DNA of 64,000 nucleotides, taken from the NCBI GenBank assembly GCA_965228855.1, contig CBDDIJ010000003.1:2656001-2720000 (forward strand), read 5' to 3'. The position numbers and the translations under genes are program-made. The notes under the pieces were generated by a model that made no database searches, was not told the origin of the DNA, and was given only the letters and a program-made list of their open reading frames with translations. Positions within the stretch are counted from its first letter, which is position 1. Every line of letters starts with the position of its first letter. Positions 7,785 to 24,100 of this stretch are shown in pieces. The DNA is from Candidatus Obscuribacterales bacterium. GTDB lineage: Bacteria > Cyanobacteriota > Vampirovibrionia > Obscuribacterales > Obscuribacteraceae.

Positions 7785-8145
7785 CTTACGGATCCGACCT
7801 CCCAGCGGACTACGTTTGACTGGCAAGTGTGCAGGAGATGATCATCTTTGCATCGATTTCGGATCGGATTTCTGCACATTCGAACCTCAGTCACCGATTA
7901 GGCGAACCGCAGTCGCCGATTAAGCGAACCAAAGTCGCCAATTTCGGATTTCAGATGCCGGAATTTGCTAATCCGGCATTCTGACGTAGTCACTTACGAA
8001 TCCGACCTCTCAGCGGACTACGTTTGACTGGCAAGTGTGCAGGAGATGATCATCTTTGCATCGATTTCGGATCGGATTTCTGCACATTCGAACCTCAGTC
8101 GCCGATTAGGCGAACCAAAGTCGCCAATTAGTCGCCGATTAAGCG
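7745..8145. repeat. Near-identical ~200-bp direct repeat (7745-~7943 and 7954-~8129) with internal 22-bp tandem units
   Basis: Shared GATGCCGGAATTTG..AATCCGGCATTCTG.CGTAG.CACTTACG.ATCCGACCT..CAGCGGACTACGTTTGACTGGCAAGTGTGCAGGAGATGATCATCTTTGCATCG...; 22-bp unit CGAACCnnAGTCrCCGATTArG. Confidence 0.9.
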
Positions 8146-9491
8146 TTCACACCACGCTCGCGAGAGATGCGACGAACATCAGACTGAACTTTGCGGCGGT
8201 AATCGCCGTGGATGTTGCGCCTGTCTTTGCCCCATTTGCCTTCTTCGGGAATACTCTCGACTTGAAATTTCAAGTTCTTGACCGTGTGACCCATTCCGAT
8301 TGCATCCGATGCACCTTGCGAAAGATCAATGACGCGGCTGTGAACTTTCTCGCCGCTACCGTCCGGACGCTCAACTTTTCGGCCGGCGAAGGGACCATGA
8401 TCGGTAACGACCACGCGAATTTCTCTGCCGTTATCAGGGTTAGTCACTTTCAGCACTGTGCCGAAAGGGAATTCTCTGCTGGCTGCAGTCAACTCGTACT
8501 TGTTGAACGGCAGTCCTGATGCCGTTTCACGTCCACTCCTGTACATAGAGGTCGTCCCCTCGAATCGATCCCCTTCGTTGTATCTCTTCAGAAACGGGCT
8601 TTTGAAGGCGCCTTCGGGTTTCTCACGAGAGGGACTAGAGTCATCGCTTCTTGGTTCTGGATTGACAGTCGGCTCTGGATTTATATCCGGTCGCCGCTCA
8701 GGCTTAGGCGCAGGTTCCTCCCGACGACGCGGAGCCGGCTTTTCATCCCGCTCTCGGCGAGGACGCTTATGTTCGGGTTGAGCGCTTGGCTCGAATTCCG
8801 CCGAGATCAAACGCTCGCGAATGCGATTGCGAAGACCCTCGTCTTGAATTGAATTTAAAACCTTTTCGACGTTTTGTTGCGTCAAAAGCGCGTCTCCGCG
8901 GCTCAGAACGTTACCATCACCATGTTCAGGATTAGATTTCCATTCTGATTTCAGAGCATTCGTAAAAGCCTTCTTCTCCTCATGACTAAAACCGTCGCCG
9001 AGAAGACGCGATGCAACCTGGTGATAGCCTTCTTTTTTACGAACCTTCGCAGCATCGAGTGTGTTGGTCTTCAGTTCGGTTGCCACCGCTGCCGGTGCGT
9101 CCTCCGGCTTCACAACTTCCGGTGCGGCGGCCCGCGCATCTCCCGGATCGGCTTCTCTGGGCGGCGTGGCTTTCTTTCCGGGCTCATCGGTGGAACCGGC
9201 TATGACATTGCCTTTCTCATCAGTTACGGCGACATCCGGCAGCGTGATCCCATCTCTTTTCGCGAACGCACCCATGATGTCCACAGGTTTGCCAGCAGCA
9301 AGATCAGCGACCGAGTTCGAGTCGAATTCCGGCAGTTTTCCAGTCGGGCCGAGTTCGCAGCGAGGGTCGTATTTGAAAACATCTTTGACTTGAGCAGGGT
9401 CGGAAAGGTCGACTCCAAGATTGGTTGCGCCACTTTTGGGCGTGTTTACCTCAGCGACACCGTCGCTGTGCTTCTGCACTTCAGATCCCAT
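8139..9491 (-). CDS. RlpA-family (double-psi beta-barrel) lytic transglycosylase with LysM-like domain and disordered N-terminus
   Basis: C-terminal TASG..FNKYELTAASREFPFGTVLKVTN..VVVTDHGPF..RVIDLSQGA; central VRKKEGYHQVASRLLG...N..LSRGDAL is LysM-like; no signal peptide. Confidence 0.8.
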   Translation of the reverse strand: MGSEVQKHSDGVAEVNTPKSGATNLGVDLSDPAQVKDVFKYDPRCELGPTGKLPEFDSNSVADLAAGKPVDIMGAFAKRDGITLPDVAVTDEKGNVIAGSTDEPGKKATPPREADPGDARAAAPEVVKPEDAPAAVATELKTNTLDAAKVRKKEGYHQVASRLLGDGFSHEEKKAFTNALKSEWKSNPEHGDGNVLSRGDALLTQQNVEKVLNSIQDEGLRNRIRERLISAEFEPSAQPEHKRPRRERDEKPAPRRREEPAPKPERRPDINPEPTVNPEPRSDDSSPSREKPEGAFKSPFLKRYNEGDRFEGTTSMYRSGRETASGLPFNKYELTAASREFPFGTVLKVTNPDNGREIRVVVTDHGPFAGRKVERPDGSGEKVHSRVIDLSQGASDAIGMGHTVKNLKFQVESIPEEGKWGKDRRNIHGDYRRKVQSDVRRISRERGVNA

Positions 9492-9881: not shown

Positions 9882-10688
9882 CTACGCAGTGATTGCGTGC
9901 GGCGTAACCGGCACAACACCTGCTGCAGGAACGAACGTGCCTTCCGTAACATTGTCCGCCGTTTGTGGGAACAAGTTGAGAGTGCGACACTCGGCATTCT
10001 GCCATTGCGCGCTAATCATGCCCTTCTTGTAGAGTTCTTGGTGAGTTGCGAAGAAGCAATATTTTGCCAAACTCGAATTCGACATTTGAGCGATCTTCGC
10101 TTGCAGAGCGGCTTGCGACTCATCGTCTCTAGTGACGATTAGAAGCATTTCGCAGCCTGCCTCGACTATTGACTTTTCCAGACCTGCAAGAGTTGCATCA
10201 TCGCAATCAGGATTGTTCGCGATTCCGATATCATATGCGATACCATTGCATTGGAATGAAACCTTTGCGTCCAGGTGGAATTTCGCTTTGTCTTCGCCTT
10301 TCACCGTCGACCATTTGATGTCAGAGGCTTTGCCTTCGTTCTTCGCGATTAGATAAAGCATCCGGATGTTGGCGACTTCGAGGTGATGACGCTGCCAATT
10401 CGCATCGAAGCGATCGGTATCATCTTGCTCTTTGCCGGAGACGCTCTTAGCCATCGGAGACAGCATGTATACGAGCGGTTTGGTCGGCGTCGTCCACCAC
10501 GGCAACTTGGTTCCGTGACGGTGACAGAGAAGATAATCGAGATAAAAGAGTTTTCTGAGACGATCTCTGATCAAGACTGGTTTGTCTTCTTCAGTGATGA
10601 ACCACGAAATATGTTTTTCCAACAAAACTTCGTGCTCATCTATCAAATTGAAGATGAGATGGTCTCTGTCATTGAGCTGAATAGCCAT
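9882..10688 (-). CDS. Replication-relaxation (Replic_Relax)-like wHTH + degenerate PD-(D/E)xK protein
   Basis: Pattern LNDRD..IF.LI.EH..L...I ... RDRLRKL..L.YL ... P.VY.L ... RHHLEVANI resembles the family; the nuclease motif looks degenerate (HLDAKVSF..DIGI). Confidence 0.55.
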   Translation of the reverse strand: MAIQLNDRDHLIFNLIDEHEVLLEKHISWFITEEDKPVLIRDRLRKLFYLDYLLCHRHGTKLPWWTTPTKPLVYMLSPMAKSVSGKEQDDTDRFDANWQRHHLEVANIRMLYLIAKNEGKASDIKWSTVKGEDKAKFHLDAKVSFQCNGIAYDIGIANNPDCDDATLAGLEKSIVEAGCEMLLIVTRDDESQAALQAKIAQMSNSSLAKYCFFATHQELYKKGMISAQWQNAECRTLNLFPQTADNVTEGTFVPAAGVVPVTPHAITA

Positions 10689-10747: not shown

Positions 10748-11515
10748 CTAGCGGGTAGGTACTTGTCCGCCAACGCGTTTGATTTCTTCGATAGAAGGAT
10801 TGCCTTTTACGTATTGCTGCAGAGCGTCTGTCTGCTGTCTCATGTGGACGTGATATTTCATTCTCAAATCAGTGTCCAGAGCATAAATCCGCTTGTTGAG
10901 TTCTTTCAAACCCTTCGCTCTGTTGTGAATCGAGTCCAACCCTTCTTCTAACTCCTCCATAGTTTTCGCTGCGGGTCTGGGTTTTATCAGGTCCTCGTAT
11001 ACCGATGCTGAGTCCGCGTACCAATCGGCTACTAAGTTGACATAGTCTCTTATGTCGGTGGTGCCGGGTGGGAACTCTAACTTTCGGAGAACACCAGCGA
11101 GATATCTGTACTTCACAGCAACTTTCTTCGCGGTGTCTGTCCACTGCTGAACGCGCTCTGCCTCTTGATTGAAACCGCGGGTGAGGATCGCGGATTCACC
11201 TTGAGTTTTGCTGTAGCAGAAAACTGTCTGGTCGAAATTTTCGAACCATCTAACTACAGGATCATTGGGATTTGACATCATCGCCAATGCGCCCTGTTTG
11301 CCGAGCGGGTTCTCGGGAACCTCGGTGGCTTTGCGAATTCTTTCTTTGGCGGCAGCCGCTTCGCGAGCACCGCTATCAGAGTTGAATTCATCGTGCATCG
11401 GCTGGGCAGCTACTGCTGCGAAACCGAATGAGCTTGCTGTCAGCACCACGGCTGCAACTAATGCTGCTGCCACCTTCTTAGTTTTGATGCTGTCGTTGCG
11501 TACGCTCATTTCCAC
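10748..11515 (-). CDS. Secreted helical hypothetical protein
   Basis: Signal peptide KTKKVAAALVAAVVLTASSFGFAAVAA; amphipathic helical body; co-oriented with the operon. Confidence 0.75.
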   Translation of the reverse strand: MEMSVRNDSIKTKKVAAALVAAVVLTASSFGFAAVAAQPMHDEFNSDSGAREAAAAKERIRKATEVPENPLGKQGALAMMSNPNDPVVRWFENFDQTVFCYSKTQGESAILTRGFNQEAERVQQWTDTAKKVAVKYRYLAGVLRKLEFPPGTTDIRDYVNLVADWYADSASVYEDLIKPRPAAKTMEELEEGLDSIHNRAKGLKELNKRIYALDTDLRMKYHVHMRQQTDALQQYVKGNPSIEEIKRVGGQVPTR

Positions 11516-11612: not shown

Positions 11613-12578
11613 TTAATGTCCGTACAGTGGATCAACTGGTACGCCACTTCTGCCATTGCTACCGCTCGCTCCAGGTGTTGCCGGAGTATTCGGTCTCGAC
11701 ATGAATGCGTCTTGAACTTGTGATGGAGCCGGTCTCGATACGTTTTGCGCCGGCGTGTCGCTGTTGGCGTTATACGTATTCATTTGAACGATCTTCCAGA
11801 TAGTGTATGCGGAGAGGAGAAGCATCATCCCTGCGGCCGCGCCGAATACTCTGGAACCTCCATATGGATTACCCATGACCATCGAGTAGGCAGCCATCGA
11901 CATGAAGATCGTGGCACTGACTACACCGAGGATAACGAGATAACGCGAGAAGGTCCAAACCGTCGGAAGCGGATGGTCTGGAGTGTAGCCGTAAATGCTA
12001 TTGTGGTCCGGCTTCGGATAACCGTTGCCAGGCGCATCACTATCGATGAATTTGCGTCCGCCATTGTTGGTCGCTTGTGGATACGGAGCAAGAGCTTCGT
12101 TAATTTGTTCCATTTGCGCATCAGTCGCGGTAGCTTCAATTGTTTGTTCGCCCGAACGCATATTGACTCCGAGAATGCCCTCGATTTGACTGATGGCGTC
12201 GTTGCTCAAAGTGTCGGGACGAATTGTGGTGACCTGTCTTTCGCCGCGCGCTCCGTTGTGAAATACACGGACGGTGCTGCGGTCGCGACCTTCACCTGTT
12301 GGAAAACTGTGACCGGGAGTGGCATCAGAGGTTCCAGACGGAACATTCTGGGCGCCGCCCGCATCACCAGGGGTGACTGCAGGAGGCGCGGTGCCGTCGC
12401 CGACCGGTGGTGGCGCAGGTGGTGCGAACTGAGCATTAGCGGAGACCGAAAAACCGACGGAGAAGAGCACGGCAACCGCGAGGGCTAAAACGCTTCTCGT
12501 CAGGCTGTCCTTGTTTCTCATCTTCACTTGCATGTCCTTCGTGTCCTCGTAAAATAACTTGTTCGTTTCCTGTCTCAC
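11613..12578 (-). CDS. Secreted/membrane protein with C-terminal VirB2/TrbC-pilin-like two-helix hairpin (true start may be ATG 12533)
   Basis: Signal peptide, Pro-rich linker, then VWTFSRYLVILGVVSATIFMSMAAYSMVMGNPYGGSRVFGAAAGMMLLLSAYTIWKIV (TM-turn-TM, as in conjugative pilins). Confidence 0.6.
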   Translation of the reverse strand: MRQETNKLFYEDTKDMQVKMRNKDSLTRSVLALAVAVLFSVGFSVSANAQFAPPAPPPVGDGTAPPAVTPGDAGGAQNVPSGTSDATPGHSFPTGEGRDRSTVRVFHNGARGERQVTTIRPDTLSNDAISQIEGILGVNMRSGEQTIEATATDAQMEQINEALAPYPQATNNGGRKFIDSDAPGNGYPKPDHNSIYGYTPDHPLPTVWTFSRYLVILGVVSATIFMSMAAYSMVMGNPYGGSRVFGAAAGMMLLLSAYTIWKIVQMNTYNANSDTPAQNVSRPAPSQVQDAFMSRPNTPATPGASGSNGRSGVPVDPLYGH

Positions 12579-15500
12579 TTATCGGTCCGGAGTCGATCCA
12601 CCATCATTGCCGCTGGTGTCGGTTCCAACATGAACTTTTTGAGGTGCTCGTGTGATTGTCATCAGCTCTTGAGCGAGGTTCTGCAATTCACTCAGCGAAG
12701 GGAAGTCGAATAATGGATCTTCCTTGCTGTCGAGCTCCGGTGCTATCAGACTGGACAGCTCAGCAGACGGCGCCGGCTTGGTTTCTTCAACGATTGAGAT
12801 TTTAAGGTCATCATCGTCAGGTCCAAAGAAGCTGTCACCGAGGATGGTGTCAACGAAGTCGTCAACACTTTTTGTACCTGCGGGACTGACTTCTTGCTCA
12901 CTACCCTGGAGATTTGCTGGCTCATCAATGTCATCAATCAAAGACTCCTGTGTGCTGAGTTCGAACTGTGGTTTTCTTCCGTTTCTGCCATTTGTCATGG
13001 ATGTGATCATCGGCAGTCTAGGTGCTCGTACAACTGGCTCGTAGTCGCCACCCGGAATTTCGAGAATCTTCTGACCTTCCGCATTTTCGAGCATGTGAAC
13101 AGAGGACACTTGCAAGGTTTCTTCCAGTGTCGCGTCCTCCGGAAGCGCGATTCTCGAACAGGTTCTGTCGGGCACTGGTTCGAAACTGTCGACCACTCTT
13201 CCGAGCGTGACTTCAAGACCGAGACCGCGAATCTCGCAGCAGAGTCCGTCGAAAGCCGCGGTACGGCTGCCGTTTTGAACATTCTTGCCCTGCACCATAT
13301 CGGTGTAAGCCTGGTGTCTGCCCTGGATGTCGTCGGCTTTGATGGTCATCATCTCGTGAAGGATGTTTGCCGCACCATAAGCTTGAACAGCCCATACTTC
13401 CATTTCGCCCATGCGCTGACCGCCGTGGTTGGCTTTTCCGCCGACCGGCTGTTGAGTGACCGCGGCGTAAGGACCGCCGAGACCGCAACGAGCGTTGACT
13501 TTGTGGAGAACCAACTGGTTCAACTTGAGCATGTACTGGCGTCCGACAAGAACTGGTCTGTCGATTTTTTCACCGGTTCTGCCGTCGGTCAGAATGACTT
13601 TGCCGTCTTCGCCGAACCACTCGTAGCCTGGAGTCTTACGAACTTCAGCCAGTGCTTCCTTGACCAATCTATATGAAGCGTCATCACTGAGAGATTCATC
13701 GAATTGGTGAATGCGGTAATAGCGATTGAGAATATCGGAATAAAGTCCGAGCTGAGTGTCGAACACCTGACCGACGTTCATACGGGACGGTACGCCGAGG
13801 GAGTTGAGCACCAGGTCGACCGGAGTACCGTCGGGAAGGAAAGGCATATCTTCATCGGGAACAATGTTCGCGACGATACCTTTGTTTCCGTGACGTCCAG
13901 CCAGTTTGTCGCCAACTTCAACAGGGCACATTCTTGCGATCAGAACTTCGATTTCGCAGATCACACCAGCTTTCATTTCAGGTGTGGTTTCCGGCGTGAA
14001 GATGCGAACGTCGATTACGCGACCGCCCGAACCATGTGGAACTCTCAAGCTGCTATCGCCCATTTCTTCAGCGACCTTTCCGAAGATTGCCTGAAGCAAT
14101 TCTTCTTCGGAGCTCAATGCGCGATGCTCTTTAGGTGTCAGTTTCGAAACAAGCACATCGCCGGCTTCAACATAAGCGCCGATTTTTGCGATACCACGCT
14201 CATCGAGATGCTCGAGATCTTTGGATGAAACGTTGGGCAATTCCGGTGTGAGAATTTCAGGTCCTCTCAAAGTTTGATAAACGTTGAGCGAATGTTTCTC
14301 GATTTCGATGTGGGTGAGTTTTTGATCGCGAACGAGACCACGACGGACGACGATAGCATCCTCATAGTTGTATCCGCCCCACGGCATGAACGCGATTAAT
14401 AGGTTTCGGCCCAGAGCCAATTCACCTTTGTCGATGCCAGGTCCGTCTGCGATGATTTCGCCGGCTTCAACTTTTTGTCCGAGCGAAACCGATGGACGTT
14501 GGTCGAGAATCGTATTCTGGTTGGTGCGATCGAAACGAGTGAGATTGTAAGCGCGCTTCTCACCGGAAGCTTGCGTGATCTCAATGTTCTGTCCGCTCAC
14601 TTGAGTGACGGTGCCACCACGACGAGCAGTGATCGAATGTCCGGACGAACGAGCCACGATTTTTTCCATGCCCGTTCCAACACGTGGGCGCTCAGGGCGC
14701 ACCAGCGGTAGAGTTTGGCGCATCATCCCGCCACCCATCAGGGCGCGTCCCGTATCATCGTGCTCGAGGAATGGGATCAAACCTGAACCAACTGAGAGGA
14801 AACCTTGCGGCGTGATCCCCATCATGTCGACCTGCTCGGGAGTTACCTCGATGAGGCTTTCTCCGCGACGAGCTGCGACCAGCGGTCCGAGAATTTTGCC
14901 ATCAACACAACGAGTGTCAGGCGGTGCAAGAGTGTATTTCTTATCGTCGGATGGTGTGAGGAATTGCACTTCATCAAGCAAGTAGCCATTCTTCACTTTG
15001 CGATAAGGCACGGTCAAGAAACCATCATCATCGATACGGCAGTAGCTGGCGAGGTACGAAACCATACCGCAGTTCTTACCTTCAGGCGATTCTACGAGAC
15101 AGACCCGACCGATTTGCGACGGGTGAACGTCACGCATTTCGACAGGTGCTGCGTTCGGATCGATACCGCCAGGTCCGAAGGATGTGATTCTTCTTCTGTG
15201 CGAAAGTTCCGAAAGAGGATTTTGTTGATCGAGATACTGAACGAGCGGGTTGCCCGAGAAGTATTTAGTGATTGCGTTGGAGAAAGGTCTCGTGTCGATC
15301 AAATCGTTAGGACTGCCGATCTCTTCGTCTTCGTTGAGTTCGAGTTTCATCTTGATCGAACGGGTCATCTGACCGAGAGCCGGGCGAACAGCTTTGAGCA
15401 TTGTCTCGCCAACACCACGAAGGTGTCTGTTTTCCAGGGAGTCGATGTGATCGATAAAACCCATATCTGAAGGAAGACCGAGAAGATACTCGATTGCTGC

Positions 15501-16370
15501 CATCAAATCGGAAGGGCTGAGTTGCTTGTTCTCGCCATCCAAACCCAGTTTGCGGTTGAAACGGCTGCGTCCAAGTTTGCCGAGGCTATAACGACGCTTG
15601 TCGAACAGTTCACCAAGTGCGGTATTACCTGCACCGGAACCGCCGCCGCCGTCCGGCTTCCAGCCTCTGCCTACGACAGAGAGAGCTTCAGCCTGGGTGA
15701 TTTCTTTCCACTCGATGCGGCTGCGATCGAGAAGTTTTCCGAGACGTTTTTGGATATCTTGTGCGTCAAAGCCCATTGCGGTCAGAAGCGTGGTGCATGC
15801 AATCCACGAACGCTTCGGAAGTTTGACTCTGCACTTAGAACGGCTAGCTTTACCAGGAGTGACTTGCGGATCGATTACGAGTTCGAATGCGATAGGCGCG
15901 CCTTGCTCTGCAAGCATCAGACCTTTGTAGGTGTTGCCTGCCGGTTGGCTGAAGTAGATGCCGGGAGCGCGGACGAGTTGACCGAGGACAACGCGTTCCG
16001 ATCCGTTGATGACGAATGTACCGCGGTCGGTGATGACGGGCATGTCTGCGATGTAGCATTTCGACTTGCGCAGTTCACCAGTTACGGTATCACGCAACCA
16101 TGCTTCCATCATCAGACGACGAGCGTGAGTCATGTTGGTCTTTCGAGCTTGCTCTGCGGAATTCGGATATCCGGAATCCGGAGCATAGTCTTCGAACCAC
16201 CATTTGACTTTGCCATCTGGTCCGACAAAAGTAAGTTCAAATCTGGGGGAGAGGTCACTCGAGATGGGCGAGATTTCAGCGAAGAGATTACCAATTGTCT
16301 CTTCGAGGAAACGCCGATAAGAACGTCTCGGGAACTCTGCCAAATCTGGTGCTTGGAAAAAGAAACTCAT
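12579..16370 (-). CDS. rpoB: DNA-directed RNA polymerase subunit beta, divergent paralog with acidic C-terminal extension
   Basis: TDRGTFVINGSERV, DQQNPLSELSHRRR..GPGG, RDVHP..GRVC..ESPEG, LEHDD..RALMG, GYNYEDAI, GDKLAGRHGNKGIV, PSRMNVGQ, TQQPVGGKA..GGQRMGEMEVWA. Confidence 0.95.
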   Translation of the reverse strand: MSFFFQAPDLAEFPRRSYRRFLEETIGNLFAEISPISSDLSPRFELTFVGPDGKVKWWFEDYAPDSGYPNSAEQARKTNMTHARRLMMEAWLRDTVTGELRKSKCYIADMPVITDRGTFVINGSERVVLGQLVRAPGIYFSQPAGNTYKGLMLAEQGAPIAFELVIDPQVTPGKASRSKCRVKLPKRSWIACTTLLTAMGFDAQDIQKRLGKLLDRSRIEWKEITQAEALSVVGRGWKPDGGGGSGAGNTALGELFDKRRYSLGKLGRSRFNRKLGLDGENKQLSPSDLMAAIEYLLGLPSDMGFIDHIDSLENRHLRGVGETMLKAVRPALGQMTRSIKMKLELNEDEEIGSPNDLIDTRPFSNAITKYFSGNPLVQYLDQQNPLSELSHRRRITSFGPGGIDPNAAPVEMRDVHPSQIGRVCLVESPEGKNCGMVSYLASYCRIDDDGFLTVPYRKVKNGYLLDEVQFLTPSDDKKYTLAPPDTRCVDGKILGPLVAARRGESLIEVTPEQVDMMGITPQGFLSVGSGLIPFLEHDDTGRALMGGGMMRQTLPLVRPERPRVGTGMEKIVARSSGHSITARRGGTVTQVSGQNIEITQASGEKRAYNLTRFDRTNQNTILDQRPSVSLGQKVEAGEIIADGPGIDKGELALGRNLLIAFMPWGGYNYEDAIVVRRGLVRDQKLTHIEIEKHSLNVYQTLRGPEILTPELPNVSSKDLEHLDERGIAKIGAYVEAGDVLVSKLTPKEHRALSSEEELLQAIFGKVAEEMGDSSLRVPHGSGGRVIDVRIFTPETTPEMKAGVICEIEVLIARMCPVEVGDKLAGRHGNKGIVANIVPDEDMPFLPDGTPVDLVLNSLGVPSRMNVGQVFDTQLGLYSDILNRYYRIHQFDESLSDDASYRLVKEALAEVRKTPGYEWFGEDGKVILTDGRTGEKIDRPVLVGRQYMLKLNQLVLHKVNARCGLGGPYAAVTQQPVGGKANHGGQRMGEMEVWAVQAYGAANILHEMMTIKADDIQGRHQAYTDMVQGKNVQNGSRTAAFDGLCCEIRGLGLEVTLGRVVDSFEPVPDRTCSRIALPEDATLEETLQVSSVHMLENAEGQKILEIPGGDYEPVVRAPRLPMITSMTNGRNGRKPQFELSTQESLIDDIDEPANLQGSEQEVSPAGTKSVDDFVDTILGDSFFGPDDDDLKISIVEETKPAPSAELSSLIAPELDSKEDPLFDFPSLSELQNLAQELMTITRAPQKVHVGTDTSGNDGGSTPDR

Positions 16371-18808
16371 TAGTTGCCACCAGCCTTAGCGTCTTCCGTG
16401 TTGGTTGTAGTTCCGTCGTTATTAGACATTACTGACCTTTTGTGAGTAGCTAGAGCCCGCGCCAAGTCATCGGCGTAGGTCTTGATTCCTGGCTTCAATG
16501 CACTTGCTATTCTGAATTCGGTGACTGCTTCGCTTATTCTTCCTGCTGCCATCAGGTTGACGGCTAGTCGGTGGTGATTTGAAGCATTCTCCAGGTCTGT
16601 CGCTACCACATCTCTTAAAATTGCCACCGCCGCCATATGATCTTTTCGAGATTCGGCTTGGGTCACTTCGATGAGCTTTGGGTCTTCCTGAGTGGTTGCG
16701 GAACCCGTCCCAGTTGGAACATTTCCATTATCGTTACCGGGAGCCCCGCCGTAAATGGTGGAATCCACCTGTCCAGTGGGAATACTACGTACTCCATTTT
16801 CGGCTCCCATCGGCTGGGCATTTCCGGGTTGAACAGCTACCTGGTTCGGAGCAAAATTTTGTTGAGGTCGAAAACTGGCCGCAGTCGGAGCGACACCACC
16901 GCCAGGAGCTCCCTCGTAAACGCCTTTGTTCATCTGTGGCGGCACGCCGAAGTTGTTGGTCGCCATCTGCGACGCGCCGAAACTTTGCGGTGCAACACCA
17001 CCTTGCGGATTCACTCCAGTGGGCGCCATACCGTTTGGAACCATCCCGTTTGGAACCATACCGTTGGGAGCCACGCCTGTCATCATCGGAGATTGAACTG
17101 GTGCACGGTTCTGCATGTTCATGGGCGAACCCATCTGCATACCGGGTTGGGGCATCCCTTGCGGAGGCATACCCTGTTGCATCTGCTGCGGCATACCCAT
17201 GGGAGCGCCCATATGCATGCCTGGCGCCATGCCCTGCGACATGTTTTGAGGCATGCCCGTTGACATGTTTTGCGGCATTCCTTGTGGCATTTGCTGAGGT
17301 ATATGCTGCGGAGGACGCTGAGTCATTTGCGGCGGCATTGCGGCGCCGCCAGGTTTAGATCCTGAATTCTGCATCTCCTTCATACGGGCTGCAGCTTCTT
17401 TGTTTTTCTCCGGGTCTATCAGAACGCATGTGAGATAAGCCTGGTGTGCGCCTTTGTAATCGCCGACAGCTTCCAGACACTCTCCCAGAAGAAACTGATA
17501 ACGCGCATTGCGAGGCTCAATCATGACAGCCTGAGACACTTCAGCCAGTGCCTCTTTGCGCAGTCCTTGCGAGAACAAAGTCTCGGCGGCTTTCTTATGC
17601 TTCTCCGCTCGGCCGTGTTGATATGATTTTTGCAGACTGGCTCTGCCGTCGGCCAGTCCGGGATGGTTGGCATTTATGACTTCCAGTTTCTTATACTCAG
17701 CTTCGGCACCGGCATAGTCGCCAGTCAACTGGAGAGCGCCTGCGTACCCGAGGTGGAAGTCCGGGTTCAGCGGATTCTTCGCTACTTGCTTGCGCCATAT
17801 CTCAACCAGTTGAGAGCCGGCCAGAGCATCAGTGTCGTCGAGAATGACGGCTTTGCGAAGCAATGCAGCTGCGCCTGTTTCATCTTTCTGGAGTAGCTTC
17901 ATGATGCCGAGCTGACGTTGTGCCGGTCCGTAGTTGGGATCTTTGACTGCCGCCTGCTGGTAGCATTGCAACGCTTGCCCTGTCTGTCCCCAGCGGTACT
18001 GCAAGTCTCCGAATTTCACGTAAACTTTTGCCGACGGGTCAATCTCCATCGCCTGTTTGTACTCGACGTAAGCGCCTTCGAGGTCATTAGCGTTGATGAG
18101 CTGATCGCCTATGCCAAGTCGAGCATCTGCATCGACCGGGTCAATGCCTTGCTTCTCGAGCGCCGAAGAAAGTCCTTTGACCGCCCGAGCGTTGGAATAC
18201 TCAGCGAACAGCGCCTTTCTGTACATGGTTGCGGCGCCTGCCGAATCACCGACCTTCGCTTTGTAGTCGGCGAATGCTGTGCGCGCAGCGCTCAGATTCA
18301 GCTTGTACTGTTTGTTCGTGGGGTCGTACTGCACGGCTTTCTCGTGCATCGCGATGGCGTCGACCCATTTGCCTTGAGAACCAAAAGCGACACCCTGGTT
18401 GTTGAACTCAATGGCATCGGATTTGTATTTCGCATACGTCTCGGTACGCTTCTTGTCGGCTTTTTCACGAGCCGCTTCTGCCTCTTTCTTGGCGAGTTCA
18501 GCGTCTGCAGCCTTTTTGGCTTCGTCTTCTTTCTGCTGTTTCTCGAGATCACGATAATCAGGTCGTCTCTTGAAACGGCTGAGCGCAGGTGCATGGTACT
18601 GCGCGTCGTTTTCAAAATCTTTTTCACCGCGGCTCGACTGAGTGTCAGCGCTGGCGCGCGGTAGCGGTTTTGCGTTTAGCTTCGTAGCACTGGCTGCTTG
18701 AGAGCAAGAGAGTGAGAGAGTTAACGCCAGAAGAACGAGTGTGAGGGGTTTGCTATACATCAACATTGGAAAAAGAACGGGAGGTTTTGAGGGGTAGTTA
18801 GTCGGCAA
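16370..18808 (-). CDS. Secreted TPR-repeat protein with Gln/Met/Pro/Gly-rich low-complexity linker (start probably near ATG 18766)
   Basis: Signal peptide LTLVLLALTLSLSCSQAASA; multiple TPRs (AVQYDPTN, AMEIDPS, VKDPNYG, MIEPRNA); TAA overlaps the ATG of the rpoB paralog (TAATG). Confidence 0.85.
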   Translation of the reverse strand: MPTNYPSKPPVLFPMLMYSKPLTLVLLALTLSLSCSQAASATKLNAKPLPRASADTQSSRGEKDFENDAQYHAPALSRFKRRPDYRDLEKQQKEDEAKKAADAELAKKEAEAAREKADKKRTETYAKYKSDAIEFNNQGVAFGSQGKWVDAIAMHEKAVQYDPTNKQYKLNLSAARTAFADYKAKVGDSAGAATMYRKALFAEYSNARAVKGLSSALEKQGIDPVDADARLGIGDQLINANDLEGAYVEYKQAMEIDPSAKVYVKFGDLQYRWGQTGQALQCYQQAAVKDPNYGPAQRQLGIMKLLQKDETGAAALLRKAVILDDTDALAGSQLVEIWRKQVAKNPLNPDFHLGYAGALQLTGDYAGAEAEYKKLEVINANHPGLADGRASLQKSYQHGRAEKHKKAAETLFSQGLRKEALAEVSQAVMIEPRNARYQFLLGECLEAVGDYKGAHQAYLTCVLIDPEKNKEAAARMKEMQNSGSKPGGAAMPPQMTQRPPQHIPQQMPQGMPQNMSTGMPQNMSQGMAPGMHMGAPMGMPQQMQQGMPPQGMPQPGMQMGSPMNMQNRAPVQSPMMTGVAPNGMVPNGMVPNGMAPTGVNPQGGVAPQSFGASQMATNNFGVPPQMNKGVYEGAPGGGVAPTAASFRPQQNFAPNQVAVQPGNAQPMGAENGVRSIPTGQVDSTIYGGAPGNDNGNVPTGTGSATTQEDPKLIEVTQAESRKDHMAAVAILRDVVATDLENASNHHRLAVNLMAAGRISEAVTEFRIASALKPGIKTYADDLARALATHKRSVMSNNDGTTTNTEDAKAGGN

Positions 18809-19007
18809 ACTCGCAACCTCGCTCGGTTCGCCGAATGTGAGCCCAGCTTAAGGTTATACGACGGCATAGTCCATTGGGGGATATCCCACCCCCTTCGTAA
18901 ATCTCCCACAATTCACATTAAAATTGCGAAGCCGCAACGCAAGTGAATTCCGACAGACGTTTTCAAAACCGAAAAATTTTACGGACGATTCGCCCACCTT
19001 ATAAATG

Positions 19008-20198
19008 TTATTCATCGTCGCTTTCTTCTGAATCATAGTCATCGTCATCTTCACGATAGCCGCCCAGTCCGACGCCGACCAGTTTCGTCTCGCCTTTCAC
19101 CTTCTTGAGCTCTTGTGGCGGATAGCCGCAGTATTCTTCCATGTAGTTGGCGAGGTCAGTTGAATGCGTTGTCAGCCAAATCTGAGTGGTTTCAGAAGCG
19201 GTGGCTAGCAATCTGGCGAGTGGTTCATACAAACTTGGATGAATACTTGTTTCCGGTTCATTTATTGCAAGAAGAGACGGCGGTGTCTTGCTGAAGATAG
19301 CGGCCAGCAAACAGAGATACTGGAGGGTGCCGTCGGAAAGTTCGTGCGCGTCGAGCGGTCGTTCCAGACCGGGCATGGTCATTCGCAATTTCAAGCCCGC
19401 GTTGGATAAACCTATCTGCAAGTCGCTTTCGGGAAACGCATCTTTTAGTGCTTTAAAAAGCTTCGGTGCGTCGCCGTACTCGATGATGGTTGCAAGAGCT
19501 GAAACGAAATCGCTGCCGTCATGCGCCATAATGTCGGTGCGAACGGCAATTTGAGGTCGGCGCAATGGCGAACTCTTGTCTGTTCTGAAGTGATGGTAAA
19601 AACGCCAGTTGAGAAGTTCGAGCCGGAGCATCGACAACTCCGGGAATTTAAGCGGATCTCTGACGCCGGTAAAAATCGACTCGTTGGGCGCGACGCGCAT
19701 CGAGTAATCGCTGTTCTGTTTTTCAACAACATCGCGAACGCTTACCTCCATACCCTTGCGTTTCAAAAGCATTGACTTGGAGCCATTTTTCAAACGAAAC
19801 AGTTTCTCACTTTTAATTTCGACATCATTTCGAAATATCGTGTTGCCGGCGCCGTGAACTAAAACGCGACCCATCTCGGCATAACCCGTTCGATAATCGC
19901 CAGACACGTAGCCACACTCGAGATCGTATTGCAGGTCATCGACCTTTACCGAAAGTGTCATTGAAATTGGGTCTTTCTTGGAATAAGCGCCGCACCACAA
20001 TGACGAGTCCATGCCGCCTTCTTCACCTATAGAGCGTGCAAACTGACCGCTGGCGATGGTCGACATAAGATATAGTGCGCGATAGAGATTGCTTTTGCCG
20101 CAACCGTTCGGTCCGACAAAAACGTTGACTGGATTGAGTTTCAACCAGATGTCTTTGACCGAGCGATAGTGTTTGATTTGAAAATCTTTGAGCGCCAC
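19008..20198 (-). CDS. ABC/SMC-like AAA ATPase (AAA_21/COG4637-like), copy 2
   Basis: Walker A GPNGCGKSN, signature LSDGT, Walker B AINEPETSIHP, H-loop TTHS. Confidence 0.9.
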   Translation of the reverse strand: MALKDFQIKHYRSVKDIWLKLNPVNVFVGPNGCGKSNLYRALYLMSTIASGQFARSIGEEGGMDSSLWCGAYSKKDPISMTLSVKVDDLQYDLECGYVSGDYRTGYAEMGRVLVHGAGNTIFRNDVEIKSEKLFRLKNGSKSMLLKRKGMEVSVRDVVEKQNSDYSMRVAPNESIFTGVRDPLKFPELSMLRLELLNWRFYHHFRTDKSSPLRRPQIAVRTDIMAHDGSDFVSALATIIEYGDAPKLFKALKDAFPESDLQIGLSNAGLKLRMTMPGLERPLDAHELSDGTLQYLCLLAAIFSKTPPSLLAINEPETSIHPSLYEPLARLLATASETTQIWLTTHSTDLANYMEEYCGYPPQELKKVKGETKLVGVGLGGYREDDDDYDSEESDDE

Positions 20199-20201
20199 CG
20201 G

Positions 20202-21401
20202 CTAGTCCTCCGGCTCGTTTTTCTTCAACGCGGCACGATAAGCCCGTACCGCAGCCGCGTCGTCATCCTCGACTTCGGCTCTGGCACTGCGAACCTCTTC
20301 GCCCCTGATCACAGTTTCACCTGCAACTTTTTCCAGCTCGATAATTTTGCAATTGCCCTGCGCCTTAACGTGTTGAGCCAATTCGGAGGAATGAGTTGTG
20401 ATAAGCAGTTGCGAGCGCCTTGATGCTGCAACTATCAATTCAGCAAGCGGCTGAGCGAGGTCCACATGCATGCTGGTCTCCGGTTCGTTGAAAACCATAA
20501 AGGATGCGGGTCTCGGTGTCAGCAATGCAGCAAGCAAACACAGGTATTGCAAAGTTCCATCGGACAATTCCCGAGCGTGAAGAGGACGAGCAAGTCCGGG
20601 ATATTCCATGTATAAGCACAATTCACCATCATCTTCAACGATTGAAACAGACGCACCCGGAAATGCCCGGTCGACAAATTGATCGAACTCTTGCGCACTG
20701 CCTATGGTGCGAATCGTGGCTACCACAGCAGCAAGATCGCTGGCATCATGGCTCAAAATCGGCGTCATCGAGGCGAGTTGGTTTCTCCTCACAGGTGATT
20801 GCAAGTCGGTTCTAAAATCGTGGTAGAAGCGCCAGTCGGCAAAAAGCATGCGAAGAGAAGAGAGCTCAGGAAATTTTTCTGGCTCTCGAAGTTCAGACAA
20901 GACGCTTTCGTTCTTCAACAACTTCACCGGGTAGTCGACAGTACGTCCCTCCAGATTCTTTGCTCGAACAGAATTTCCTTTCCTGCTAAACAGTGCGATT
21001 GGTTTTTCTCCAGTCAACTCAACGGTCTCGACTTTGATATCCGGGTCGTCTTTGAACAGGCGCAGCCCCTCGCCGAATTGACCGTCGCTCGGACGCTCGC
21101 TAATAGCGATTCTTCCAAATTCCATTTCGTATTGGAGCTTATCAAATTTGATCGCGAGACGCGTTCTATGGTCATCTGAAACATGGCGATGTCCCGCCCA
21201 TGAAAGTGAGGGGACGCCCCCTTCCTCGGCGACTCTTCGAGCAAATTGCCCATGAGCAGCGCTTCCTAGAAGTTGAATAGCTTGGTAGATGTTGCTTTTG
21301 CCACAACCGTTCGGCCCGACCAGAATAGTTATGCCGCCGAGTTTCAGTTGAAACTCCCGCAAAGAGCGATAACCGCTGATTTCAATTTCGCGAATTTGCA
21401 T
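20202..21401 (-). CDS. ABC/SMC-like AAA ATPase (AAA_21/COG4637-like), copy 1
   Basis: GPNGCGKSN, WRFYHDFRTD, LSDGTLQYLCLLAA, FNEPETSMH, TTHS. Confidence 0.9.
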   Translation of the reverse strand: MQIREIEISGYRSLREFQLKLGGITILVGPNGCGKSNIYQAIQLLGSAAHGQFARRVAEEGGVPSLSWAGHRHVSDDHRTRLAIKFDKLQYEMEFGRIAISERPSDGQFGEGLRLFKDDPDIKVETVELTGEKPIALFSRKGNSVRAKNLEGRTVDYPVKLLKNESVLSELREPEKFPELSSLRMLFADWRFYHDFRTDLQSPVRRNQLASMTPILSHDASDLAAVVATIRTIGSAQEFDQFVDRAFPGASVSIVEDDGELCLYMEYPGLARPLHARELSDGTLQYLCLLAALLTPRPASFMVFNEPETSMHVDLAQPLAELIVAASRRSQLLITTHSSELAQHVKAQGNCKIIELEKVAGETVIRGEEVRSARAEVEDDDAAAVRAYRAALKKNEPED

Positions 21402-21439
21402 CCAAGATACTCGCAGTTGTCGGCTTTGTGGAACAGAAC

Positions 21440-22870
21440 CTAGGTCCCGTCGTGTTCGGCGGGTCCGGTAATCATGTTGAATCGCGGCGTGTATAGGTGA
21501 TTGTCACTCACGATACACGCGGACAAATTATTATGCACTCCCGGATTGGCTAGAGCCATGAGACCGAACGCGAAAAGCAGGATGGATACAAGCGATACGA
21601 AAGCCTTAAACATTACTCCGATATCACTATAAGTCACAAAGAAAATTGATGCGAAAAAAACAACCATCATCGAACAAGGAATTACTTTCATCAGGTGCCG
21701 AATTGAAGATCGACGAAACGACACGCGCGCGCCGTCAACATCGGTGACTCGAAGCCTGAACACGCTCTTTCCGAGCGTAGACTCCTTAGGCGAGCTCTCC
21801 ATGAGTGCGTGATACATCCAGTTAATCGTCACCACTACTAGTACCGCAAGGGTAAAGCCAAGTTCCGGATTCGACAGAGGCGCAGCCAGAAGGCTGGTTG
21901 AAAACGGCTGAGTCGTAAGTTTCGCAACTATCAGCGGAATGCTCAAGATTGCCAATGCAGGGGCAAAGCAGACGAACAGAGCGTCCAGAAATCCGATACC
22001 GAACGTCGCTAAAATGAGCGGTTGCCATTGACTCATCTCGAACGGCGCGTGCGAAGCGTTTGCACCAGATGCGATATCAATGGCATTGGCTACGACGAAC
22101 AGAAAAAACGCGCTTAAACAGCCTACTACAAAGCCATCGATTACCTGAGCTATTATTCGTTGAGGCGGCCGCGCAGGCAACCACTCGCTCATTTGCGCGC
22201 GGTGAGCCTGCAACTGGAGCGAGGTCATTCGATCCTTTTCGGACATATCGTCCAGACGAAGTTTTTCATAGACCTTGCTACGCTCAGCGAAAAGCTCGAT
22301 CATCTCGGATTTAGATGCCATGCCGATCGCCGTCGTGTAATCGATGATCGCCTTGTCGTCTTGCCCGATCAAATGATAGGCGCGCGCCCTGCGTCGCACT
22401 AGTTCAACTAACAACCCACGATCTAATTTCGGTCCGATGGTTGCAGTGGCAAACTCGATAATCTTGTCGTAGTCGCCCAACTCACGGTAGGCTTCGACGA
22501 GTCGAAAACAATCGTAGTAATACCAGCGCCGAGACGGATCGATTTCGATGGCTCGCTCAATATCGGCGGCCACTCCAGTGAAGTTTCCTAACTCGAAAAA
22601 TGCCCAGGCGCGAAGAGCAAAAGCGCCGGAATCGGCCGGAGCCAGATCGATTTTCGCGCTGCAATCGTCGACGGCACCATCAAGGTCTTCCATGCACAGT
22701 CTTGCGTATGCTCGCAATCCGTAGTTGAACGCTTCGCCAGGGTCCATCTCAATTCCGCGCGTCATGCACTTCTCCGCTTCCTTGAAACGCAAAAGCACGA
22801 CGTTGATCAAACCGCCAACTCCGTATAAGTATGCTCGTAAACTTCGTAACCCCTGCCGCATAAAATCCAC
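21440..22870 (-). CDS. TPR + RDD-family membrane protein
   Basis: N-terminal TPRs; RDD motifs RIIAQVID, TLGKSVFRLRVTDVDGAR..RH, HNNLS. Confidence 0.8.
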   Translation of the reverse strand: MDFMRQGLRSLRAYLYGVGGLINVVLLRFKEAEKCMTRGIEMDPGEAFNYGLRAYARLCMEDLDGAVDDCSAKIDLAPADSGAFALRAWAFFELGNFTGVAADIERAIEIDPSRRWYYYDCFRLVEAYRELGDYDKIIEFATATIGPKLDRGLLVELVRRRARAYHLIGQDDKAIIDYTTAIGMASKSEMIELFAERSKVYEKLRLDDMSEKDRMTSLQLQAHRAQMSEWLPARPPQRIIAQVIDGFVVGCLSAFFLFVVANAIDIASGANASHAPFEMSQWQPLILATFGIGFLDALFVCFAPALAILSIPLIVAKLTTQPFSTSLLAAPLSNPELGFTLAVLVVVTINWMYHALMESSPKESTLGKSVFRLRVTDVDGARVSFRRSSIRHLMKVIPCSMMVVFFASIFFVTYSDIGVMFKAFVSLVSILLFAFGLMALANPGVHNNLSACIVSDNHLYTPRFNMITGPAEHDGT

Positions 22871-23236: not shown

Positions 23237-24100
23237 TTGGACCCAGGATTACAACCAATGTCAAGCGGACCACCTCAGAGACCTCCTTCAGTCTTTAGAC
23301 CACGAACGGTCCTGTGTGAGCGGCACGAACTCATCCGATTCGGCTTGAGACGCGTGGTATCAGAAGTAGTTGAGATCGTCGGTGAAGCATCGGACGGAAT
23401 GGCCGCGACAGAACTGATTCGTCGCATGCGCCCGGATTTCATCATAATGGACGTCGACCTCGACGTTCTCAACGGCGTAGAAGTCTGCCGCAGAGTAGCG
23501 CAAGAATTGCCGAACTCACACGTCCTGGTTCTCACAGATTCGTATCACGCCACCAAGTATCACAACCAGCTGATTCGCGCAGGCTCGCGGGGATTCTGCC
23601 TTAAGAGTTCAGGTCCGAGAACCTTGTTCGAAGCGATTGAACAGGTCACGCGCGGATTGCCCTACTGTGATCCCAAGATTACGCAACTGGTCAAGCAACA
23701 ACCGACGACCAGTATGCCGAACAGCAATCTCACCGATCGCGAAATCGAAGTTCTCATTCGTCTTGACTTGAGAAACAAGGAAATTGCAGAGGAGCTTGAC
23801 ATGAAGCTCCGCACTGTAGAAAAACACATCGAGTGCATCCTGGCAAAGCTCAAGGTTCCGACTAGAACGGCAGCAGCACTTAAAGCCGTGCAATTGGGAT
23901 ACGTTCTATTACCCAAGATGCCGGGTCGCGATCCGGTCACAGGCATCAGCCACGAGCAAACAGTGGCAGAGCTGCAAGCGGAGCTGGCAATTGCCAACGA
24001 GCACCTGAAGGCACTCTTGAGACAGAATGAACTTCTGAAAGAAGCTTTGAACGACAAATTAAGACGTCCTCAGCAGCCACCGCGACCGGAAAACGAGTAA
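23237..24100 (+). CDS. NarL/LuxR-family response regulator with C-terminal coiled coil
   Basis: REC (IIMDVDL, GFCLK), LuxR HTH (LTDREIEVL..NKEIAEEL..RTVEKHI..KL), heptad tail. Confidence 0.9.
   Translation: MDPGLQPMSSGPPQRPPSVFRPRTVLCERHELIRFGLRRVVSEVVEIVGEASDGMAATELIRRMRPDFIIMDVDLDVLNGVEVCRRVAQELPNSHVLVLTDSYHATKYHNQLIRAGSRGFCLKSSGPRTLFEAIEQVTRGLPYCDPKITQLVKQQPTTSMPNSNLTDREIEVLIRLDLRNKEIAEELDMKLRTVEKHIECILAKLKVPTRTAAALKAVQLGYVLLPKMPGRDPVTGISHEQTVAELQAELAIANEHLKALLRQNELLKEALNDKLRRPQQPPRPENE

Follow-up and report, generated by a model that had tools for sequence, protein, structure and literature searches.

A far-diverged, strongly conserved second RpoB of the Obscuribacterales, encoded in an operon whose promoter motif is common with a type IV secretion system

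Why does a bacterium with a complete RNA polymerase (RNAP) carry a second, very different β subunit? This question is raised by the window analyzed here, a stretch of 64,000 nucleotides of contig CBDDIJ010000003.1 (positions 2,656,001 to 2,720,000) of a Candidatus Obscuribacterales bacterium. Positions 12579–16370 on its minus strand form a single intact frame of 1263 codons, which encodes a stand-alone RpoB paralogue, here named beta2 (gene rpoB2). Judged from its sequence, beta2 is a neofunctionalized, strongly conserved rpoB duplicate. We give about even chances to the reading that it forms an active second RNAP core, which would be induced with the program of a type IV secretion system (T4SS) and act on factor-delivered or pre-opened DNA.

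The scores of beta2 exceeded both curated NCBIfam cut-offs for rpoB (1054.9 against 896 and 1008.2 against 801). The Rpb2 domain series was found; Pfam Rpb2_1 was not reported in the domain search. The host genome of 8.2 Mb contains two rpoB genes, a single rpoA, a single rpoC1 (NADFDGD intact) and a single rpoC2. The canonical rpoB lies on another contig in the rpoB-rpoC1-rpoC2 operon and its product (beta1) is 42% identical to beta2 (range 42–44%). The paralogue gene sits outside that operon and is not directly upstream of rpoC. No divergent beta' or alpha partner was found in the host genome by tblastn, phmmer, a motif scan and Pfam. The gene and its motifs (residues numbered on E. coli K-12 RpoB) were located as follows.

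12579..16370, minus strand: rpoB2, 1263 amino acids, core from 1 to about 1060, then a partly conserved extension of about 90 amino acids and an acidic tail
13467..13526, minus strand: KLNQLVLHK..NAR.GLGG with H1237Q (13515–13517), D1240L, D1241H, H1244N and an insertion of two amino acids in switch 3
13776..13913, minus strand: K1065/K1073 (GDKLAGRHGNKG) and R1106 (GVPSRMN) motifs, each conserved in 80/80
14352..14375, minus strand: E813/D814 motif, kept according to the residue scoring
14715..14759, minus strand: link region, R678, M681, R687 and Q688 kept, N684G and Q686M fixed
15144..15167, minus strand: fork loop 2, GIDPNAAP (R540P, R542A, G544P)
15636..15662, minus strand: gate loop, now glycine-rich, WKPDGGGGS versus LRPGDPPS
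15894..15896, minus strand: W183P, loss of the residue stacking on non-template +1, missed by the earlier note on this DNA

Two alignments were scored. The first comprised 41 housekeeping and 29 paralogue sequences, the second 68 housekeeping and 27 beta2 sequences grouped in residue classes (excluded were G007, near-identical, G004, frameshifted, and G010, truncated). In the second scoring the metal-B/NTP residues E813, D814, K1065, K1073, R1106 and R678 were present in 27/27 beta2 sequences. The same holds for M681, R687, Q688, E565, S1105, Q513, D516, H526, R529, R1269, M1273, D1084 and G1215, and also for M1085, G1218, L902 and F906. Twelve of the 14 active-site positions scored are unchanged, each in 27/27, and the alpha-assembly residues and the hydrophobic core of the flap tip are retained. 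The motifs quoted in the earlier note are all present in the single 1263-codon frame, and the residues it had listed as retained were found in 29/29 paralogues, with D446 in 28/29 (the exception is a frameshifted sequence).

The housekeeping consensus is not found in beta2 at H1237, N684, W183, the gate loop and fork loop 2. All or almost all beta2 sequences carry H1237Q, N684G, Q686M, W183P and the changes in fork loop 2, gate loop and switch 3, none of which occurs in the 68 housekeeping betas. In the first alignment, H1237Q, D1240L, D1241H, H1244N, N684G, Q686M, G544P, P560L, R452H, Q510P and the two-amino-acid insertion in switch 3 were found in 29/29 paralogue and 0/41 housekeeping sequences, R540P and R542A in 28/29 and 0/41. 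The earlier note had named H1237Q (codon CAG at 13515–13517, Gln952 of beta2), the change of fork loop 2 from GLTRERAG to GIDPNAAP with loss of R540/R542 and the switch 3 insertion. Fixed in the 27 sequences of the second scoring are H1237Q, N684G, Q510P, S509N, L533F, W183P, D199P, R470Q, N494D, E374G, L538I, V547M, H1244N, K900E, R903Q, E908K and K909V, whereas R540P, R542A and R371K reach 26/27. Among 419 columns invariant in housekeeping RpoB and E. coli, beta2 keeps 243, is fixed for a different residue in 96 and varies in 80. These substitutions were not seen in the housekeeping RpoB of the lineage.

Other motif changes from the same source had to be narrowed. In DIDHLGNRR to HIDSLENRH, R452H is general (29/29), while D444H is variable, with N in most paralogues. 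In HPTHYGRVCP to HPSQIGRVCL, P560L is distinctive (29/29 versus 0/41), whereas H554Q also occurs in 2/41 housekeeping sequences. The variant DDTG (A676T/N677G) is no family trait, as EHDDANRALMG is retained in 55/80 paralogues.

In 148 representatives of divergent RpoB clusters, H1237 was kept in 148, H1244 in 145, N684 in 142 and Q686 in 140. These four sites can be called normally invariant in the full sense; for R542 (91), Q510 (95) and G544 (89) the term applies only loosely. None of the 148 representatives had more than 6 of 25 beta2 states. One phage beta has a Lys at position 1237. The replacement pattern supports a putative function of beta2 distinct from that of housekeeping beta.

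Such a pattern could also belong to a decoy, the pseudo-subunit that had been suggested as an alternative: beta2 would assemble but be poorly active and sequester alpha, beta' or sigma, so that housekeeping transcription is damped when the T4SS starts. The kept assembly residues are consistent with this, as is the removal of RNA contacts by H1237Q, N684G, Q510P and R540P, with H1237, one of three primer-phosphate contacts, being otherwise universal. A decoy, however, has no need for E813/D814, K1065/K1073, R1106, R678, M681, R687 and Q688 at 27/27 through the history of the order. Because the 12 unchanged active-site positions are conserved in 27/27, the pseudo-subunit is less favored than an active enzyme and is regarded as unlikely.

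The ratio of nonsynonymous to synonymous substitution rates (dN/dS) was determined by NG86 for 13 paralogue pairs. It ranged between 0.052 and 0.096 in 8 of the 13 pairs, compared to 0.031–0.056 for rpoB1 in the same pairs. The other five gave 0.029, 0.168 (frameshifted row) and three saturated values. Since dN/dS is far below 1, beta2 is not decaying, and the purifying selection postulated in the earlier note is borne out, also by the fixed-different sites and by a long stem followed by slow evolution. The divergence rate is 1.8 times that of beta1, and the distances of the two correlate (Spearman 0.71, 253 non-independent pairs).

An artefact, a contamination or a decaying duplicate might be suspected from the estimated contamination of the host genome (5.78%) and from the relatives G004 and G018, in which beta2 is split over two frames. 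Against this stand the same operon at 19/19 loci, the presence in 34 other genomes, the dN/dS values and a base composition of rpoB2 that resembles the remaining window. This explanation is refuted by the conservation across genera and retains practically no probability.

The trees point to the housekeeping RpoB of Cyanobacteriota as the source of the duplicate. In a tree of 38 rows beta2 was placed within Cyanobacteriota (support 99) and in a tree of 17 rows within the class (support 100); a clade of beta2 with the beta1 of its own order was not rejected (17 rows, p-AU 0.11). The stem measures 4.1–4.9 substitutions per site and the tips 0.14–0.31. Near E. coli residue 75, beta2 has an insertion with an approximate counterpart in the beta1 of its order and in that of three related families; 27/27 sequences outside the class lack it. 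The simplest reading would be a duplication inside this branch with a burst of change and subsequent stasis. A position at the phylum base, given by FastTree and by the tree of 38 rows, is probably due to long-branch pull. Phages or plasmids were rejected as origin, with no close relative there (all matches <60%) and trees that place beta2 among housekeeping RpoB.

In 60 relatives, beta2 (match of at least 69% identity) was found in 33/36 genomes of the same family, 1/3 of the sister family and 0/21 of other orders; it was not found in the same-family genomes G006, G008 and G020. No beta2-like match was obtained in 110 further genomes sampled across the phylum, where double rows came from single genes split into pieces, except for a short extra fragment in G117. 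The DNA pattern for KLNQLVLHK was located at 86 loci among 185,579 species genomes, and the 80 listed of these 86 are mostly titled Obscuribacterales, Obscuribacter or Melainabacteria, a few having other submitter labels. Clustering at 50% identity gave, among the best 150 clusters, 2 that are beta2-like; all others reach at most 46% identity to beta2. Two full copies of beta2 are present in G013 (contigs C21 and C50), a genome with 8% contamination in which a binning artefact is possible.

The gene is part of a fixed arrangement. The order TPR protein, rpoB2, membrane protein, secreted protein, 268-amino-acid protein was found intact at 19/19 loci with flanks, and a NarL-type regulator lies upstream and divergent from the operon in 17/19.

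23237..24100, plus strand: NarL/LuxR-type response regulator, 82–94% identical across the family
18842..18908, minus strand: conserved operon promoter element, two TGGGA-N4 repeats 20 bp apart (18896–18908 and 18873–18888), followed by a -35-like hexamer and a -10-like hexamer (TAAGCT)
16370..18808, minus strand: TPR protein, predicted to carry a signal peptide and encoded by the first operon gene, whose stop codon overlaps the ATG of rpoB2
11613..12578, minus strand: predicted secreted or membrane protein, N-terminal motif common to two secreted proteins of the T4SS cluster
10748..11515, minus strand: conserved predicted secreted protein without known family
9882..10688, minus strand: 268-amino-acid paralogue of Replic_Relax/MOB_C relaxases, full length, last gene of the operon

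The true start of the TPR gene may be the ATG at 18766. The 11613–12578 product has no Pfam match; its hydrophobic hairpin is weakly VirB2/TrbC-like (Prob 93 over 38 columns, pilin E 0.02), with a fairly high feature score that serves as a lead only. The regulator is much more conserved than its neighboring genes, and its receiver reads CERH at a position usually occupied by an acidic pair.

The last gene of the operon connects it to conjugation. Its product aligns end to end with the PF13814 protein of the same genome (Prob 96, E 4e-9, 230 columns), and its N-terminal 76 residues are near-invariant. A winged helix-turn-helix plus a restriction-endonuclease-like fold was assigned with high confidence, although the structural matches to restriction enzymes are weak (E 0.02) and Foldseek gave no match for the model at E<=0.001. 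None of 48 members has a Pfam match. The motif D...ExD is presumably the acidic catalytic motif of MOB_C/Replic_Relax relaxases. In the paralogue the first Asp is kept and LLEIDTG aligns with IGIANNP; since ExD is replaced, the protein is predicted to be nuclease-dead. It was found in 34/36 same-family, 1/3 sister-family and 0/21 other-order genomes.

The promoter element provides the second connection. It consists of TGGGA-N4-TACG and TGGGA-N4-CCCCAAT, with TAAGCT following 20–21 nt later, and 20 of 21 operon upstream regions passed the site filter. It is predicted to be an activator-dependent sigma70-type promoter. A matrix trained on the rpoB2-operon promoters alone, with a 14-bit threshold chosen by the analyst, yielded 36 matches genome-wide, 3 of which lie at T4SS promoters within 25 kb (0.11 expected) and rank 3rd, 5th and 36th. 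In the T4SS loci of relatives, 9 matches above 14 bits were found at matching positions in 4/5 relatives (100 kb), compared to 2 in 275 kb of controls. A strict pattern gave 30 matches in 21/61 genomes, whereas other orders and the reversed control yielded 0; it was drawn up after both sets had been seen and is therefore not independent. Of these 30, 19 are situated upstream of VirB4 at a distance of no more than 10 kb, 2 before a VirB6-like gene (separate contigs), 6 before a conserved gene for 78 amino acids and 2 at the rpoB2 operon, with 1 left unassigned. A refined model found 17 sites in the host genome, none inside a long same-strand frame, which precede LysM, TPR and three effector-like proteins among others. 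A generic promoter/terminator scan remained at chance level and did not detect the motif. The motif would define a regulon that includes the rpoB2 operon and T4SS promoters, and would offer a first handle on the T4SS-based lifestyle of these uncultured, non-photosynthetic relatives of the cyanobacteria. The operon, the relaxase-derived gene and the promoter motif common with the T4SS cluster are new here and had not been noticed in the earlier note.

The chromosomal T4SS cluster (G000:C3:3042918-3065593; L219, L220) is order-wide and of conjugation type. It comprises two near-identical pilin-like genes, VirB6-like, VirB3-like, VirB4, VirB8-like and VirD4 genes, those without Pfam match being labeled by position and hydropathy, and ends in a PF13814 (MOB_C) relaxase. 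Its VirB4 has matches in 36/36 same-family, 3/3 sister-family and 0/21 other-order genomes, with only a distant paralogue in G020. In the literature, PF13814 corresponds to MOB_C relaxases and a PD-(D/E)XK fold fused to a helix-turn-helix (PMC5357655, PMC3424549).

From these features a mechanism can be proposed. The regulator at 23237–24100 is, by its adjacency and the geometry of the motif, inferred as candidate activator; it would bind the TGGGA-N4-(T/C)CCC repeats and turn on rpoB2, T4SS units and a few other genes jointly. beta2 would likely combine with alpha, RpoC1 and RpoC2, each of which the cell has once, to form a second RNAP that is predicted to be active, and replace beta1 in a fraction of the cores, as its alpha-assembly residues and hydrophobic flap-tip core are kept. 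The loss of W183, the gate loop, R540/R542, R470, Q510 and H1237 would weaken the hold on the initiating RNA and on a bubble that the enzyme has opened itself. Such an enzyme would be poor at ordinary promoters and rely on single-stranded or pre-opened DNA, or on a factor that delivers the DNA. The likely targeting factor would be the ExD-less relaxase paralogue, by which the beta2 enzyme would be directed to T4SS-related DNA to yield transcripts or primers. The specific version, a dedicated RNAP whose beta2 core is steered by the nuclease-dead relaxase to DNA of the conjugation machine and primes or transcribes single-stranded or pre-opened DNA, is possible but doubtful.

The altered initiation or bubble handling proposed in the earlier note matches the pattern of changes, insofar as E. 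coli structure-function data can be transferred. In E. coli, W183A cut the open-complex half-life to 0.19 (fivefold shorter) at an unchanged elongation rate, and deletion of 533–546 crippled both open-complex life and elongation (PMC4499132). The primer phosphate is held by H1237, K1065 and K1073 (bioRxiv 2021.04.06.438613). Contacts to the non-template strand come from R371 and the gate loop, those to the template strand from R470 and K496 (bioRxiv 2021.09.08.459427). R542A was described as viable in vitro with altered pausing (PMC11001881).

Several observations weigh against an active, T4SS-directed core. As H1237 is kept in 148/148 other divergent RpoBs, the enzyme could be crippled without it. 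Moreover, most of fork loop 2, whose deletion (533–546) severely impairs elongation in E. coli, is rewritten in beta2. The binder of the motif is inferred from adjacency, the 14-bit threshold was the analyst's choice and the third T4SS match ranks last of 36. Since three of the four proteins encoded together with beta2 appear to be extracytoplasmic, co-location may mean co-regulation only. No sigma factor specific to beta2 carriers was seen in 5 genomes. G037 (94% complete) and G038 (88% complete) carry T4SS genes, and rpoB2 was not found there. In G038 the NarL-type regulator is present without the operon beside it; G037 also lacks the regulator, which suggests an assembly gap.

The sigma factors bear on a more ordinary explanation, in which an active beta2 works with one of many sigmas at second-tier normal promoters, and neither the relaxase paralogue nor single-stranded DNA is involved. 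The host genome has 19 sigma70-family (region-2) matches, of which roughly twelve are of group 1/2 size. In the flap tip the hydrophobic core is retained and charges are swapped (K900E, R903Q, E908K, K909V), and actinomycete rpoB(R) alters global expression (PMC5431353). But no co-distributed sigma was seen in the 5 genomes, none of the 17 best motif sites is followed directly by a sigma gene, and this reading leaves the relaxase paralogue unexplained; such a core is considered rather unlikely. Four small-genome relatives have 6–7 sigma70-family matches compared to 19 in the host genome.

Alternatively, beta2 could itself be cargo of the T4SS. Exported to a recipient or prey, it would combine with the alpha and beta' of that cell, so that transferred DNA is expressed or transcription poisoned. 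Effectors, however, tend to change quickly and in a patchy manner; beta2 occurs as a single copy with distances that follow those of rpoB1 (Spearman 0.71), and it is large (1263 amino acids). Co-regulation with the T4SS and with three polymorphic-effector-like proteins (hydrophobic N-terminal domain, variable C-termini) speaks for export, and T4SS use has been proposed for a related predator (PMC4451040). Export of beta2 is judged improbable.

The favored reading, an active second core, would matter beyond this lineage. In the textbook view one bacterial core RNAP is specialized via sigma factors, the known exceptions being close actinomycete duplicates. A beta of about 43% identity, under strong selection, family-wide and tied to machinery of the conjugation type, would represent another way of specializing a polymerase, and a dedicated beta2 RNAP would be a bacterial counterpart of specialized eukaryotic polymerases with one core subunit swapped. 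The plant polymerases Pol IV and Pol V (NRPD2/NRPE2) likewise have a duplicated subunit with rewritten conserved sites in a specialized enzyme sharing other subunits. They are an analogy only, as they are eukaryotic, also have duplicated largest subunits and have no direct relation to beta2. In any case beta2 may serve as a natural experiment on supposedly indispensable residues (H1237, W183, gate loop, fork loop 2), and, since each partner subunit is known and present in a single copy, the hypothesis is open to testing in vitro.

Among known systems, jumbo phages have RNAPs with own beta'-like chains. The beta-like gp206 of the jumbo Salmonella phage Arash keeps E813/D814/K1065/K1073/R1106 and is changed at H1237, N684, Q686 and R540, as is beta2; it is phage-encoded and 25% identical, whereas beta2 branches inside Cyanobacteriota housekeeping RpoB. 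The latter (NCBIfam NF001616/TIGR02013; best PDB match 8syi_C) has the full domain set and the catalytic and assembly residues in common with beta2, which differs in its rewritten nucleic-acid contacts, its own C-terminal extension and its place outside the rpoB-rpoC1-rpoC2 operon. The relaxase paralogue, although aligned end to end with a MOB_C/Replic_Relax (PF13814) protein, differs from that family in having no Pfam match, a replaced ExD and a place beside rpoB2 instead of VirD4.

The closest parallels are rpoB(R)/rpoB(S) of Nonomuraea gerenzanensis and rpoB2 of Nocardia farcinica, where a second beta also occurs without its own beta', two RNAP forms have the other subunits in common, the rifamycin pocket is altered and a role in a regulatory program was proposed (PMC5431353). 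beta2 may resemble these duplicates in giving two cores. Sequence comparison of the Nocardia pair gave 85.9% identity with W183, gate loop and switch regions kept, and the rpoB(R) hallmark H526N in rif cluster I is absent from beta2, which keeps H526 in 27/27; thus, beta2 is not a member of the rpoB(R) type. It is further distinguished by the 96 refixed invariant columns, the T4SS-linked operon and the spread across a whole family. By its sequence features, beta2 is a real, well-conserved, far-diverged variation on the duplication of rpoB, unexpectedly linked to a T4SS. No description of an Obscuribacterales rpoB paralogue was found among the papers listed in literature searches whose scope left out subscription journals and supplements.

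As in actinomycetes, a resistance copy is conceivable, with beta2 sustaining transcription when rifamycins, other RNAP inhibitors or own effectors block beta1. The pocket is changed at V146, S512, S531, L533, T563, I572 and S574 (27/27), of which S531, L533 and I572 are key resistance positions, and E. coli S574Y/L533I is resistant (PMC7073797). beta2 may therefore be rifamycin-insensitive. Nevertheless, H526, D516 and Q513 are unaltered, the pocket accounts for only a minority of the 96 fixed changes, the identity of 42–44% is far from the 85.9% of the Nocardia pair, and operon and motif are left unexplained, so that resistance as the purpose of beta2 is quite improbable.

Some further genes were observed. 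The 78-amino-acid gene (G000:C5:110698-110931; L281:1199-1435, plus strand) lies under the same double promoter element as rpoB2. Its counts in the two families are 5/5 and 2/2 genomes, compared to 0/33 in others. Its product, without Pfam or PDB match, is a candidate partner or regulator of beta2. Long proteins with the motif upstream of each are encoded at G000:C5:1263288-1267337, C2:797817-800237 and C5:1490118-1492373 (L263, L269, L272); they have a common hydrophobic N-terminal domain, differing C-termini and no Pfam match, and resemble polymorphic substrates of the T4SS.

Between the regulator and the operon (window 19008–22870) lie two tandem AAA_21 ATPases and a TPR-RDD gene, and an RlpA-like (DPBB_1) gene is located just downstream of the operon (window 8139–9491). 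The ATPase pair was not at this place, and the RlpA-like gene was not found, in the loci read from 20 relatives. A second VirB4 cluster (G000:C2:~1990000-2007000; L221) has matches across the order and no VirD4 in the stretch read, and further VirD4-like genes lie on contig C4 (182 kb) and at C2:1836046. The housekeeping RpoB (L001:12267-16151) has a Gly/acidic C-terminal tail of 244 residues, which exceeds that of the compared cyanobacterial and sister-lineage sequences.

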